The translations under genes were made by a program, and so were the position numbers. 11,584 nt of DNA from Naegleria gruberi (Eukaryota): NCBI GenBank assembly GCA_000004985.1, contig GG739008.1; one strand, given 5' to 3'. Below, piece by piece: positions 1,098-10,873 of this stretch; the stretch's first letter is position 1; every line of letters starts with the position of its first letter. A model generated the notes under the pieces. The model had not been told where the DNA came from, searched no databases, and saw only the letters and a program-made list of their open reading frames with translations.

Positions 1098-3382
1098 NNN
1101 NNNNNNNNNNNNNNNNNNNNNNNNNNNNNNNNNNNNNNNNNNNNNNNNNNNNNNNNNNNNNNNNNNNNNNNNNNNNNNNNNNNNNNNNNNNNNNNNNNNN
1201 NNNNNNNNNNNNNNNNNNNNNNNNNNNNNNNNNNNNNNNNNNNNNNNNNNNNNNNNNNNNNNNNNNNNNNNNNNNNNNNNNNNNNNNNNNNNNNNNNNNN
1301 NNNNNNNNNNNNNNNNNNNNNNNNNNNNNNNNNNNNNNNNNNNNNNNNNNNNNNNNNNNNNNNNNNNNNNNNNNNNNNNNNNNNNNNNNNNNNNNNNNNN
1401 NNNNNNNNNNNNNNNNNNNNNNNNNNNNNNNNNNNNNNNNNNNNNNNNNNNNNNNNNNNNNNNNNNNNNNNNNNNNNNNNNNNNNNNNNNNNNNNNNNNN
1501 NNNNNNNNNNNNNNNNNNNNNNNNNNNNNNNNNNNNNNNNNNNNNNNNNNNNNNNNNNNNNNNNNNNNNNNNNNNNNNNNNNNNNNNNNNNNNNNNNNNN
1601 NNNNNNNNNNNNNNNNNNNNNNNNNNNNNNNNNNNNNNNNNNNNNNNNNNNNNNNNNNNNNNNNNNNNNNNNNNNNNNNNNNNNNNNNNNNNNNNNNNNN
1701 NNNNNNNNNNNNNNNNNNNNNNNNNNNNNNNNNNNNNNNNNNNNNNNNNNNNNNNNNNNNNNNNNNNNNNNNNNNNNNNNNNNNNNNNNNNNNNNNNNNN
1801 NNNNNNNNNNNNNNNNNNNNNNNNNNNNNNNNNNNNNNNNNNNNNNNNNNNNNNNNNNNNNNNNNNNNNNNNNNNNNNNNNNNNNNNNNNNNNNNNNNNN
1901 NNNNNNNNNNNNNNNNNNNNNNNNNNNNNNNNNNNNNNNNNNNNNNNNNNNNNNNNNNNNNNNNNNNNNNNNNNNNNNNNNNNNNNNNNNNNNNNNNNNN
2001 NNNNNNNNNNNNNNNNNNNNNNNNNNNNNNNNNNNNNNNNNNNNNNNNNNNNNNNNNNNNNNNNNNNNNNNNNNNNNNNNNNNNNNNNNNNNNNNNNNNN
2101 NNNNNNNNNNNNNNNNNNNNNNNNNNNNNNNNNNNNNNNNNNNNNNNNNNNNNNNNNNNNNNNNNNNNNNNNNNNNNNNNNNNNNNNNNNNNNNNNNNNN
2201 NNNNNNNNNNNNNNNNNNNNNNNNNNNNNNNNNNNNNNNNNNNNNNNNNNNNNNNNNNNNNNNNNNNNNNNNNNNNNNNNNNNNNNNNNNNNNNNNNNNN
2301 NNNNNNNNNNNNNNNNNNNNNNNNNNNNNNNNNNNNNNNNNNNNNNNNNNNNNNNNNNNNNNNNNNNNNNNNNNNNNNNNNNNNNNNNNNNNNNNNNNNN
2401 NNNNNNNNNNNNNNNNNNNNNNNNNNNNNNNNNNNNNNNNNNNNNNNNNNNNNNNNNNNNNNNNNNNNNNNNNNNNNNNNNNNNNNNNNNNNNNNNNNNN
2501 NNNNNNNNNNNNNNNNNNNNNNNNNNNNNNNNNNNNNNNNNNNNNNNNNNNNNNNNNNNNNNNNNNNNNNNNNNNNNNNNNNNNNNNNNNNNNNNNNNNN
2601 NNNNNNNNNNNNNNNNNNNNNNNNNNNNNNNNNNNNNNNNNNNNNNNNNNNNNNNNNNNNNNNNNNNNNNNNNNNNNNNNNNNNNNNNNNNNNNNNNNNN
2701 NNNNNNNNNNNNNNNNNNNNNNNNNNNNNNNNNNNNNNNNNNNNNNNNNNNNNNNNNNNNNNNNNNNNNNNNNNNNNNNNNNNNNNNNNNNNNNNNNNNN
2801 NNNNNNNNNNNNNNNNNNNNNNNNNNNNNNNNNNNNNNNNNNNNNNNNNNNNNNNNNNNNNNNNNNNNNNNNNNNNNNNNNNNNNNNNNNNNNNNNNNNN
2901 NNNNNNNNNNNNNNNNNNNNNNNNNNNNNNNNNNNNNNNNNNNNNNNNNNNNNNNNNNNNNNNNNNNNNNNNNNNNNNNNNNNNNNNNNNNNNNNNNNNN
3001 NNNNNNNNNNNNNNNNNNNNNNNNNNNNNNNNNNNNNNNNNNNNNNNNNNNNNNNNNNNNNNNNNNNNNNNNNNNNNNNNNNNNNNNNNNNNNNNNNNNN
3101 NNNNNNNNNNNNNNNNNNNNNNNNNNNNNNNNNNNNNNNNNNNNNNNNNNNNNNNNNNNNNNNNNNNNNNNNNNNNNNNNNNNNNNNNNNNNNNNNNNNN
3201 NNNNNNNNNNNNNNNNNNNNNNNNNNNNNNNNNNNNNNNNNNNNNNNNNNNNNNNNNNNNNNNNNNNNNNNNNNNNNNNNNNNNNNNNNNNNNNNNNNNN
3301 NNNNNNNNNNNNNNNNNNNNNNNNNNNNNNNNNNNNNNNNNNNNNNNNNNNNNNNNNNNNNNNNNNNNNNNNNNNNNNNNNN
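1098..3382. other. Assembly gap, 2285 N. All ORF-track translations across it are artifacts.
   Basis: An uninterrupted run of n. Confidence 1.
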
Positions 3383-4027: not shown

Positions 4028-4108
4028 CGCAGACTGCAGGATTCGAACCTACGAAGGTTTCCCCAACAGATTTCAAGTCTGTCGCCTTAACCACTCGGCC
4101 AAGTCTGC
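4028..4108 (-). tRNA. tRNA-Ser, anticodon TGA (UGA). 81 nt with a long variable arm.
   Basis: The reverse complement reads GCAGACT TG GCCGAGTGGTTAAGGCG ACAGA CTTGAAA TCTGT TGGGGAAACCTTCGTA GGTTCGAATCC TGC AGTCTGC G. Acceptor GCAGACT/AGTCTGC. Anticodon loop CTTGAAA. The B box GGTTCGAATCC is perfect. A T-run follows downstream on the minus strand. Confidence 0.9.
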
Positions 4109-4288
4109 TACATTATCAGTAAAAAATATTTCATAAAAGGGAAAGGTATAGTGTGATTGGCGCCAAAAATTGCTACACTACGGAAATCAACTTGGTTGTA
4201 TGGGAAAGTTGGTTTTTAAAAATAAAAAAATACAATTCAGGTTTGCCTGTAAATTTGGATAATTAATAACTGAGGAAATACAAACAGG

Positions 4289-4291
4289 ATG
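4289..4291 (+). CDS. DNAL1: Putative exon 1 of the axonemal dynein light chain 1 gene. It is the ATG only, followed directly by donor GTAGGT.
   Basis: The conserved N-terminal frame (VFFLRDAVKSWEEK..) has no in-frame ATG. Upstream it is closed by TAA at 4348-4350. The ORF-track start at 4363 is TTG. caggATG|GTAGGT at 4289-4297 with an in-frame acceptor AG at 4352-4353 gives a 62-nt intron. Confidence 0.45.
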
Positions 4292-4353
4292 GTAGGTTTG
4301 GAAATGAACAATAAATTGATCTAAATGTTGAATTTTAATAATCGGAATAAAAG

Positions 4354-4944
4354 GTCTTCTTTTTGAGAGATGCTGTAAAGTCGTGGGAAGAAAAGAGTGG
4401 ACAAAAAGCTTCCGAAGCTGAACAAGTATTATTATATGGATGGGTTCCTCCAATTGAAAAGATGGACACTACTGTGTCTCAAATGAAAAATTGTAAAAGA
4501 TTAGCTCTCTCAACAAATTGTATAGACAGAATTGGTGGTTTGCAAGGATTGGTATCTTTGGAAATTTTATCACTGGCTAGAAATCAAATCAAGAGATTGG
4601 AAAATCTTGACGCTGTTGCACCAACTTTGGAACAATTGTGGTTGTCTTATAATAACTTGACATCATTAGCTGGTGTTGAAAAATTGAAGAAACTCAAAGT
4701 ATTATATTGTGGAAATAACAAGATTAGTTCTTGGTCTGAAATTGACAGACTGAAAGATCTCCCTGACTTGGAAGAAATTTTACTGACAGGTAATCCATTG
4801 GAAAAGAATACTAAGGATGCAGGTGAAAATTGGAGAATTGAAGTATTGAGAAGATTACCATCGTTAAAGAAACTGGACGGAAGACCATTTGATTTGGCAG
4901 AAAGAGAACAAGCTGAAGGTGTCAGAAAGGATATGGGCGAATAA
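4354..4944 (+). CDS. DNAL1: Dynein light chain 1, axonemal (LC1; leucine-rich repeat protein), main exon. Stop TAA at 4942-4944.
   Basis: ..SWEEKSGQKASEAEQVLLYGWVPPIEKMDTTVSQMKNCKRLALSTNCIDRI..LSLARNQIKRLENLDAV..TLEQLWLSYNNL..KLKVLYCGNNKISSW.EIDRL..LPDLEEILLTGNPLE...WRIEVLRRLPSLKKLDGRPF. This is colinear with human DNAL1 over its whole ~190 aa (WEEKTGQ..SEA, PPIEKMD, LSLSTNCIEKI, LSLGRN.I, LEELW.SYN, LKILY.SNN, GNPLEE, KLKKLDG). Confidence 0.85.
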   Translation, partial: VFFLRDAVKSWEEKSGQKASEAEQVLLYGWVPPIEKMDTTVSQMKNCKRLALSTNCIDRIGGLQGLVSLEILSLARNQIKRLENLDAVAPTLEQLWLSYNNLTSLAGVEKLKKLKVLYCGNNKISSWSEIDRLKDLPDLEEILLTGNPLEKNTKDAGENWRIEVLRRLPSLKKLDGRPFDLAEREQAEGVRKDMGE

Positions 4945-5930: not shown

Positions 5931-7661
5931 ATGGAAAATTCGTATCAAAGTACTGCTGATTCAACTTCATCACCTGCAATTATAATTCCTCCTCTTGCTG
6001 GCCTTTCCTCTGTCAATCAAACAGATGACAATCAAGAAGTGCAGAATAATATTGCCTATCAATCACCAGGTAGCGAACCTTCCTCTCCAACCGGTCCTCC
6101 TTCCAAAAAGAAACCAAAACTATTGTGTGGCTGTATTCGAACTGATAGATATTTGGGTTTTATTGAACTGAAACCTGGTATTACGTGGGTTCATATTACT
6201 TGTTTCTATATTTTGGTTGTCATTTTGCTTAGTATGTTCGTATTTATTAATGCCATGTCAAGTTATGTTTTCGAAGCTTATCTGAGAGGTACTGTAAATA
6301 GAAAAGATCAAGGTAAATTGGCTGGTGACTTGTCGTTTTACAATGAATTGTGCATTTTGGCATTTGGCTTGATTTGGGGCGTGCTGACTGATATTTTGAG
6401 AGGTAGAAAGTTTGTGTACATGATTGGTTTCTTATTTATGGGAATTGGATTGTTCCTCTATACATTTGCTGAAACTATTTGGCAATTGATAATCTACAGA
6501 ATTATTTTTGCTATTGGTGCTGCCAGTACAAGTAGTATGTTAACTGCCATTGTTGGTGACTATGTCAAGAATAAGGATAGAGGTAAAGCATCTGGTTTGT
6601 TGGGATTGGCATCTGGTCTTGGTGCTGTTGTCTCTGCTTTGGCTTGTTTAAAGATTCCATTATGGATTCAAAGTGCTGATCCAACCATTTCAACAGGTCA
6701 AGCAGGTATGATTGCCTTTATGATTATGGCCTTCTTCTGTATTATTGCCATGTGTGCCTTAATGATCTTCTTCAAGGGAAGAATTTTCCCAATTTGTGAC
6801 TCTAAACAAGAACGTGAAGCAACCAGAAGAGAAATGGCTGAAAGTAGCGATTGTGAAGAAGAGGATGATGAAGAAAGATTCAACATTAAGAAATCCTTCA
6901 TCAGATTCAAAAATATCATTTGGGAAGGTTTATTTGTTGCTCCAGCAAAGAGACCATCTCTCATTCTTGCCTACATTTCTGGTTTCGTTGCTAGAGGTGA
7001 CTCTATTCTCATTACCACCTTTATTACATTGTGGGTCTCTCAACAAATGATTGACATTCATGATTCATCCAAGGCAGATGCTACTGCTAGAGGTGGTACT
7101 ATTTCTGGTATTTGTCAAACTTTTGCTCTCATTGCTGCTCCATTTGTTGGTATTTTTGCTGACTTGAGATTTAGAAGAAAGAAGAATCAAGATGTTGAAC
7201 AACAACCTGAACAAGAGGATGATTTCAAGACTGATTTTGTTAGAAAAATGTCGAGATTGATTGTTATGGCAATTGTCTCTGCAATTTCAGGTGTTGGTTA
7301 TACCATGTTATCTTTCCTCACTGATGTCACTGGTGGTTTTGTCTATTTACCAATTGCATTGATTGGTATTGGTGAAATTGGTGTCATTATTTGTTCTCAA
7401 ATCCTTGTCACTGCTGAATCACCAAGTAAGGTCAGAGGTAGCGTCAGTGGTATCTTTACTCTCTTTGGTGCTGCTGGTATTTTAGTGGCCACAAAGGTTG
7501 GTGGATATTTATTCGATGATTGGAAACCAAGTGGTCCATTCCTTTTCTATGGAGTTCTCAATTTTGCATTATTTATTATTTCTATCGGTTTCATTATTGC
7601 CCATGTTATTTACAGGTTCAAGGTTGGTAGAAACTCCAATAAAGGAGTTGACCTTAAGTAA
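5931..7661 (+). CDS. Major facilitator superfamily (MFS) transporter, 576 aa, intronless.
   Basis: An ATG-initiated ORF. About 12 hydrophobic segments fall into two bundles separated by a charged central loop (EREATRREMAESSDCEEEDDEERFNIKK). MFS motif A lies between TM2 and TM3 (GVLTDILRGRKF) and a second copy in the C-terminal half (GIFADLRFRRKK). The N-terminus is Ser/Pro-rich low complexity. Confidence 0.75.
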   Translation: MENSYQSTADSTSSPAIIIPPLAGLSSVNQTDDNQEVQNNIAYQSPGSEPSSPTGPPSKKKPKLLCGCIRTDRYLGFIELKPGITWVHITCFYILVVILLSMFVFINAMSSYVFEAYLRGTVNRKDQGKLAGDLSFYNELCILAFGLIWGVLTDILRGRKFVYMIGFLFMGIGLFLYTFAETIWQLIIYRIIFAIGAASTSSMLTAIVGDYVKNKDRGKASGLLGLASGLGAVVSALACLKIPLWIQSADPTISTGQAGMIAFMIMAFFCIIAMCALMIFFKGRIFPICDSKQEREATRREMAESSDCEEEDDEERFNIKKSFIRFKNIIWEGLFVAPAKRPSLILAYISGFVARGDSILITTFITLWVSQQMIDIHDSSKADATARGGTISGICQTFALIAAPFVGIFADLRFRRKKNQDVEQQPEQEDDFKTDFVRKMSRLIVMAIVSAISGVGYTMLSFLTDVTGGFVYLPIALIGIGEIGVIICSQILVTAESPSKVRGSVSGIFTLFGAAGILVATKVGGYLFDDWKPSGPFLFYGVLNFALFIISIGFIIAHVIYRFKVGRNSNKGVDLK

Positions 7662-8495: not shown

Positions 8496-8701
8496 NNNNN
8501 NNNNNNNNNNNNNNNNNNNNNNNNNNNNNNNNNNNNNNNNNNNNNNNNNNNNNNNNNNNNNNNNNNNNNNNNNNNNNNNNNNNNNNNNNNNNNNNNNNNN
8601 NNNNNNNNNNNNNNNNNNNNNNNNNNNNNNNNNNNNNNNNNNNNNNNNNNNNNNNNNNNNNNNNNNNNNNNNNNNNNNNNNNNNNNNNNNNNNNNNNNNN
8701 N
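8496..8701. other. Assembly gap, 206 N, inside the minus-strand membrane-protein gene.
   Basis: A run of n. Confidence 1.
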
Positions 8702-8719
8702 TTGTTTGAAAGGTGGCAT
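8702..8719 (-). CDS. Candidate start (MPPFKQ..) of the gap-interrupted membrane-protein gene. Tentative.
   Basis: The minus-strand ATG at 8719-8717 opens a frame into the gap. The ORF-track 'M' further upstream at 8770 is TTG. Frame continuity across the gap cannot be tested. Confidence 0.25.
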
Positions 8720-8948
8720 TTCTTTTTGAGATTTGAAATGATAAGAGATAGAACTAATAATCAAAGGCAATTGTTGAGAGATATATCATAAACAATTAGG
8801 CATCAGCAATCATCAGTATTAAAAAGAAACACCCTTCGCTTTTTCCAACTTTAAGAATTTCCATTTTTAAGGTTCATAAAAACAACAATTTTTTTAATTT
8901 ATTTGTTTTTTTCATATGAAAAAATTGTAAATTTCAATACAGCACGTT

Positions 8949-10323: not shown

Positions 10324-10770
10324 TTAAGCAGTGAGTTCGCAGACACCACCAATAGCCTTGATCTTTTCTTCAGCAGACTTGGAGAAGAGTCTAGCTCTGA
10401 CGACGATTGGGATCTTTGGCAAGTCACCTCTACCCATGATCTTGTCGAAACCAGCCTTGTGAGCATCAATAACGACAGCCTTACCACCGAATTTACCTTC
10501 CTTGGCTTGTTGGTAGACTTCTTGTCCGGCAACCTTCCACAATTCGTCAACATTGAGACAATTTGTCAAGAAGTGATTCTTATTCATGTGGAATCTTCTG
10601 ATACCGATCTTACCGAAATAACCAGGATGGAATCTGTCAACCCAGATTCTGTGATGGTGTTGACCACCAGCCATACCACGACCACCAGGGTGCTTTCTGT
10701 GCTTACCGATACGACCGTGACCGTGAGAGACGTGACCTCTCATCTTTCTACACTTCTTCTTAGTTGTGGC
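10324..10770 (-). CDS. RPL27A: 60S ribosomal protein L27a (uL15), exon 2. Stop TAA at 10324-10326.
   Basis: [42 protein letters not shown]...[12 protein letters not shown]...N. This matches the L27a/uL15 N-terminus ([29 protein letters not shown]) and the rest of the protein. The frame is closed by TAG at 10773-10771, directly upstream of the acceptor ttatAG|GCC. Codon usage is strongly biased (GGT, AAG, CAC, GTC, AGA), as expected for a highly expressed gene. Confidence 0.85.
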
Positions 10771-10870
10771 CTATAATATGTTCAAGAGTAAGTAAATAAT
10801 TCATACCAAGCAAGTATTAATTAGAAAAGAGAAGGTAAATATTTTTTAAGAGAGTGACTGCAGTACGTAC

Positions 10871-10873
10871 CAT
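10871..10873 (-). CDS. RPL27A: L27a exon 1, the ATG only, followed by a 100-nt intron (10771-10870; GTACGT...TTATAG).
   Basis: The minus strand reads aaagtcaaaATG|GTACGTactgcag... In-frame splicing to 10770 gives [17 protein letters not shown].., a full-length uL15 N-terminus. Without the splice, the conserved N-terminal residues have no initiator. Confidence 0.6.

Follow-up and report, generated by a model that had tools for sequence, protein, structure and literature searches.

Outer-arm dynein light chain 1 (LC1) binds the microtubule-binding domain of the outer-arm dynein heavy chain in the axoneme. The closest described counterparts of the LC1 gene considered here are those of Naegleria fowleri (KAF0975534.1), Naegleria lovaniensis (KAG2381905.1), and Willaertia magna (ABK040_015173), which are orthologous and syntenic to it and share an ATG-only exon with an intron at the same position. 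In all three species, this ATG-only first coding exon is the deposited annotation (gene span minus CDS equals the intron length), and the N-termini of the annotated proteins read MVFFLRDAVK or MVFQLKDALK. For N. fowleri, the gene models were produced by BRAKER1 with RNA-seq data (PMC6831594). Start-codon introns, which lie in phase 0 between codons 1 and 2, are a documented class that is over-represented in short, lysine-rich, conserved proteins, ribosomal proteins especially (Nielsen and Wernersson 2006, PMC1626468). The groups surveyed there were vertebrates, arthropods, fungi, and plants, and did not include Heterolobosea (PMC1626468).

We analyzed a whole 11,584-nt scaffold of Naegleria gruberi NEG-M (hereafter, the window). 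Its LC1/DNAL1 gene very probably opens with an ATG, a 62-nt intron, and an exon 2 beginning VFFLRDAVK. As in the class described in PMC1626468, the ATG would be the sole coding part of exon 1, the intron would lie in phase 0, and the host protein is short, conserved, and fairly lysine-rich (197 aa, 9.1% K for the spliced product). The G at +4 of the start gives ATG/G, a proto-splice-site-like context that is also found in this class (here and below, a slash marks an exon-intron boundary), and a ribosomal gene in the same window, L27a, has the same layout and encodes a protein that likewise answers to this description. The N. gruberi gene is unlike the class in being flagellar rather than ribosomal, in its heterolobosean host, in the very short intron, and in a recurrent TCGGAA motif. 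The intron (62 nt, donor GTAGGT) also differs from those of N. fowleri, N. lovaniensis, and W. magna (107, 101, and 78 nt, respectively; donors GTATGT or GTATGG), and the spliced LC1 model is public for these three species but not for N. gruberi. The features at the 5' end of the gene are as follows.

4203-4288, plus strand: ATG-free leader, putative promoter and 5' UTR (nearest upstream ATG at 4200)
4289-4291, plus strand: coding part of LC1 exon 1, the start codon ATG alone (direct reading; orthologous ATG/GT in relatives)
4292-4353, plus strand: predicted LC1 start-codon intron, phase 0, 62 nt (donor GTAGGT at 4292-4297, acceptor AG at 4352-4353)
4348-4350, plus strand: in-frame TAA closing the ORF 5' of LC1 exon 2 (translation)
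4354-4944, plus strand: LC1 exon 2, codons 2-197 (VFFLRDAVK...DMGE) and stop TAA at 4942-4944 (translation, orthologue alignment)
4462-4464, plus strand: internal in-frame ATG (Met38), start of the public 160-aa models

Direct reading bears out the coordinates on which the initial annotation had built this model: an ATG at 4289-4291 with GTAGGT directly after it, an acceptor AG at 4352-4353 that closes a 62-nt intron, and a mechanical ORF call that begins at the TTG at 4363. The in-frame TAA that it had placed ahead of the conserved block is present as well, preceded in that frame by three further stops: read upstream, the frame of exon 2 is GNEQ-stop-IDLNVEF-stop-stop-SE-stop-KVFFLRDAVK. Exon 2 opens at 4354 with GTC TTC TTT TTG AGA GAT GCT GTA AAG, and the acceptor joins the ATG to it in phase 0, giving the 197-aa product MVFFLRDAVKSWEEK.... 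The Met codon at 4462-4464 falls at residue 34 when counted from the TTG and at residue 38 in spliced LC1. Translation of the unspliced sequence from ATG 4289 yields MVGLEMNNKLI, a stop, and nothing more. Because the unspliced AUG opens this 11-codon dead-end ORF and four stops block the LC1 frame, production of the protein depends on removal of the intron. The intron holds two ATGs and has stops in all frames. Across 4177-4574, the window is matched without a difference by an independent metagenome contig, L005, so the ATG and intron signals are not assembly errors. Two features weigh against the model. The N. gruberi intron shows no clear branch-point consensus; the candidates, weak and picked by eye, are TCTAAAT (4320-4326) and TTTAAT (4334-4339). 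The donor GTAGGT has G at intron position +4, where other Naegleria donors seen (GTATGT, GTACGT, and GTTTGT) have T or C. An Rfam scan of the window returned two tRNAs only, with no match in the LC1 intron. One, a tRNA-Ser(TGA) at 4028-4108 on the minus strand, precedes the LC1 start codon by only about 180 nt and lies on the opposite strand from it; the other is a tRNA-Glu(TTC) at 525-598 on the plus strand, near the left end of the window.

We followed the closest homologues back to the DNA of N. fowleri, N. lovaniensis, W. magna, and two uncultured relatives (L003 and L008). Synteny of LC1, an MFS transporter, and a pyrophosphatase was observed in the relatives whose contigs reach that far. 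In all five further genomes, the orthologous LC1 gene has a start codon, a GT donor, and a 40- to 107-nt intron that ends a few codons 5' of the conserved block. The intron position is kept throughout, as ATG/GT in four genomes and ATGCCG/GT in one.

N. fowleri LC1: caagATG/GTATGT, intron of 107 nt, AG/GTG TTC TTT TTG CGA GAC
N. lovaniensis LC1: aaagATG/GTATGT, intron of 101 nt, AG/GTG TTC TTC TTG AGA GAT
Willaertia magna LC1: gaaaATG/GTATGG, intron of 78 nt, AG/GTT TTT CAA CTT AAA GAC
Uncultured L003 LC1 (76% identity): caccATGCCG/GTACGT, intron of 47 nt, AG/CCA TTC ATG CTT AAG GAT
Uncultured L008 LC1 (61% identity): aaaaATG/GTGTGT, intron of 40 nt, ...gACTAACattgttAG/AGT AAA ATG AAA GAT

N. 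fowleri and N. lovaniensis share one 197-aa LC1 (P0122) with the N-terminus MVFFLRDAVKAWEEK. The claim that joining the ATG across the intron restores a sensible N-terminus is supported by these annotated proteins: over its first 10 residues, the spliced N. gruberi product is identical to MVFFLRDAVKAWEEK, and it is nearly identical to the W. magna model MVFQLKDALKAWEEK. In L008 (positions 1409-1458; Logan SRR16235686), the 40-nt intron carries a clear ACTAAC branch site about 10 nt 5' of the AG, and the spliced product, MSKMKDVIK, regains the canonical MSK start of other protist LC1s. Support for the model from L003 and L008 is weaker, because in both an intronless in-frame ATG near the conserved block offers an alternative start. 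At 2685-2746 of L003, the two-codon first exon ATGCCG/GTACGT and the 47-nt intron are accompanied by an in-frame ATG at 2744, immediately 5' of the conserved block. Either start could be usable in this lineage, and the two-start arrangement may represent a halfway stage as the start-codon intron is gained or lost.

To gauge how readily such a structure arises by chance, we enumerated all single-intron GT..AG models with an ATG within 400 nt that keep the frame. Each species has 8 to 19 of them, and N. gruberi has seven besides the favored one; the model combining a start codon with a strong donor is the only one common to all relatives examined. When the 150 nt preceding the acceptor were dinucleotide-shuffled, 14 to 33% of trials, depending on the species, contained a bare ATG/GT. 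For N. gruberi the value was 30%, so its sequence taken alone is weak evidence. ATG/GTAnG was recovered in 1.4% of shuffles for N. gruberi, 2.1% for N. fowleri, 1.6% for N. lovaniensis, and 0.3% for Willaertia. The introns of these four named species are otherwise only 47 to 69% alike.

Under the favored model, transcription would begin somewhere within the ATG-free stretch upstream of 4289, and the first AUG (4289-4291, with A at -3) would serve as the start codon and also form the end of exon 1. Splicing would then remove the 62-nt intron (GTAGGT...AG, 4292-4353, phase 0), which would be of the U2 spliceosomal type, joining the AUG to GUC UUC UUU UUG... and allowing translation of the 197-residue protein. 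The context of the N. gruberi start is aacaggATGg, and A stands at -3 of the proposed ATG in all five genomes compared (L008 apart). In the same five genomes, the proposed start is preceded by an ATG-free run of 81 to 154 nt (joint P of about 2e-5, given local composition), and 2 to 8 ATGs lie within the intron. L008 has a 94-nt ATG-free leader before its ATG. ATG-free leaders combined with intronic ATGs are what one would expect of an mRNA on which scanning starts after intron removal and meets the proposed ATG first.

Both public N. gruberi LC1 entries (EFC35831.1/XP_002668575.1/NAEGRDRAFT_54720 and EFC37368.1/XP_002670112.1/NAEGRDRAFT_74922; UniProt D2W0N5) are instead 160-aa intronless models that start at Met38, and the spliced 197-aa protein has no exact match in a collection of 15 billion proteins. 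The Met38 model has been deposited for both copies and does not require splicing, but we consider it very unlikely to be correct, given what it would discard. The 36 codons 3' of the acceptor, compared between N. gruberi and N. fowleri, comprise 17 identical, 13 synonymous, and 6 replacement codons, with 5, 3, and 17 nucleotide differences at the first, second, and third codon positions, respectively. The first four codons after the acceptor (VFFL) show no differences other than synonymous ones within Naegleria and encode V-F-Q-L in Willaertia. Identity to N. fowleri and N. lovaniensis is 0.77 to 0.81 in the exon versus 0.47 to 0.52 in the intron, and the break falls exactly at the acceptor. 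Judged by these substitution patterns, the stretch between the acceptor and Met38 is coding sequence under purifying selection, with changes mostly at third positions, which argues against a start at Met38.

The same codons are represented in every LC1 aligned and match the solved LC1 structures. Alignment to LC1/DNAL1 orthologues, which had been put forward as a check on the model, showed the spliced product to be colinear with Chlamydomonas LC1 and human DNAL1 over essentially the full length: residues 5-191 align to residues 7-195 of Chlamydomonas LC1 (1DS9) without interruption, with E values of 2e-65 for the Chlamydomonas structures (1DS9, 1M9L, and 6L4P) and 2e-57 for human DNAL1 (8J07). 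Identity to green-algal, bird, and other protist LC1s is 52 to 62%, and Pfam LRR_4, LRR_8, and LRR_9 all exceed their cut-offs. The N. gruberi N-terminus differs from the canonical one in being two residues shorter, with MVFF where others have MAKATT or MSKATT. An AlphaFold model (28-sequence alignment) has a mean pLDDT of 95.4, with residues 1-40 at 90 to 96, and places a helix at 4-15, a first strand at 24-26, repeated strands, and C-terminal helices at 148-193. The predicted fold is thus a leucine-rich repeat with an N-terminal capping helix and C-terminal helices, and its repeat architecture and N-terminal helix are like those of the Chlamydomonas and human proteins. A start at Met38 would remove the helix and first strand, both of which are confidently predicted; the initial annotation had warned that starting at the next Met would cost conserved sequence, and this is exactly the fault of the public models, which are truncated because they start there. 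A Met38 start would also leave the ATGs at 4289, 4304, and 4325 as uORFs on an unspliced leader. On the allelic scaffold, the L27a model (139 aa) is truncated in a like way (see below), which points to weak original gene calling.

A different upstream exon, starting from ATG 4200, is highly improbable, and we rejected it because it is not conserved in relatives. One version has a 41-nt exon at 4200-4240 (ATGGGAAAG...TTCAG/GTTTGC) joined to the AG at 4366-4367, giving MGKLVFKNKKIQFRDAVK; the other has a 12-nt exon with the donor GTTTTT and uses the acceptor at 4353, as in the favored model. Each keeps the frame without a stop, N. fowleri has an annotated GTTTGT donor at another site, and a pyrimidine run lies ahead of the AG at 4366-4367. 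However, no relative has a counterpart of this exon, and N. fowleri has no in-frame model that uses an acceptor there. The donors are weaker than GTAGGT, and the predicted N-termini resemble those of no orthologue. The 41-nt version would moreover turn the VFFL codons into intron sequence despite the restricted changes they show across Naegleria and Willaertia. Intronless initiation at a non-AUG codon, such as the TTG at 4363, is exceedingly improbable: this TTG opens the longest ORF by bacterial rules, and metagenome gene callers settled on TTG for this gene and on GTG for the N. fowleri one (P0001, P0002), but such starts are the output of prokaryotic gene callers run on eukaryotic DNA, the near-cognate codons vary across species (V as GTC, GTG, GTG, and GTT; L as TTG, TTG, TTG, CTT, and CTT) whereas ATG/GT is kept, and the unspliced leader would bear several upstream AUGs and uORFs.

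The ATG-intron layout favored for LC1 had also been claimed for L27a in the same window, and this parallel holds: an ATG at 10873-10871 on the minus strand is followed by GTACGT and a 100-nt intron ending in AG.

10871-10873, minus strand: ATG-only first coding exon of L27a/uL15 (sequence and public 149-aa model EFC35835.1)
10771-10870, minus strand: L27a start-codon intron, 100 nt, GTACGT...AG (sequence)
10324-10770, minus strand: L27a exon 2, GCC ACA ACT AAG... to ...ELTA and stop (translation)

Exact-sequence look-up identified the pyrophosphatase of the window as EFC35833.1 and its spliced 149-aa L27a as EFC35835.1. The window appears to duplicate part of a 216-kb scaffold, probably as an allele. 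On that scaffold, L27a is annotated as 139 aa from an internal Met (EFC37319.1), compared to 149 aa here, a truncation like that of LC1. This shared error suggests that the gene calling behind the original N. gruberi set systematically overlooked ATG-only first exons. The initial annotation had suggested that the layout is common in this genome, which the counts obtained do not show: the window holds two genes with it (LC1 and L27a), and at the sister-species loci 3 of 11 annotated genes have it, these being the LC1 orthologues only.

Elsewhere in the window, the MFS transporter gene (5931-7661) is one uninterrupted 576-aa ORF, the exact product of which is absent from the public collection. 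Its N. fowleri and N. lovaniensis orthologues carry introns of 75 nt and 58 nt, respectively (cag/GTATGT), about 400 nt into the gene. Probably either the public N. gruberi model differs or the intron has been lost. Runs of N (assembly gaps) at about 1100-3380 and about 8500-8750 break at least two genes.

A short motif recurs in the LC1 introns: TCGGAA/TTCCGA was found in five of the six orthologous introns, with one copy in N. gruberi, three in N. fowleri, two in N. lovaniensis, one in Willaertia (in reverse orientation), and one in L003.

N. gruberi window, 4341-4347, plus strand: ATCGGAA motif in the LC1 intron, the TCGGAA core ending 4 nt before the acceptor AG
Locus L006 (N. fowleri), 3026-3032, 3055-3061, and 3098-3104: motif copies
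Locus L007 (N. lovaniensis), 3036-3042 and 3055-3061: motif copies
Locus L002 (Willaertia), 3037-3043, reverse: motif copy
Locus L003, about 2725-2731: motif copy

The last copy ends exactly 4 nt before the acceptor AG in three of these genomes (N. gruberi, N. fowleri, and L003), and related copies occur within about 120 nt upstream of the LC1 ATG. TCGGAA/TTCCGA was found neither in the L27a intron nor in L008. Poisson probabilities per species, with the remainder of the locus as background, lie between 2e-5 and 0.054, values that overstate significance because the motif was chosen after the data had been seen. Across the whole window, ATCGGAA is not significantly enriched (2 matches versus 0.78 expected; 37 of 200 shuffles reach 2). 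The motif is notable solely for its local clustering in the intron. It may be a promoter-proximal or intronic binding site that helps induce flagellar genes at the amoeba-to-flagellate switch, or an RNA-level 3' splice-site element, although we regard such a role as rather doubtful. Most matches to human CFAP20 in a protein search were from animals, and none of the 120 listed was a Naegleria orthologue. A limited literature search found no specific match for Naegleria start-codon introns or for a flagellar cis-element.

Since start-codon introns are a documented class, the favored LC1 model amounts to an annotation correction rather than new biology: it is a correct gene-model repair and a further instance of a known layout, with no new mechanism. 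It adds a heterolobosean, non-ribosomal example to start-codon introns, one that is kept across Naegleria, Willaertia, and two uncultured relatives. For the reference annotation, the correction concerns both N. gruberi LC1 entries, both of which lack 37 residues at the N-terminus and, with them, the capping helix and first strand of the leucine-rich repeat fold. Such missed N-termini matter for comparative work on flagellar proteins that takes N. gruberi as its excavate representative.
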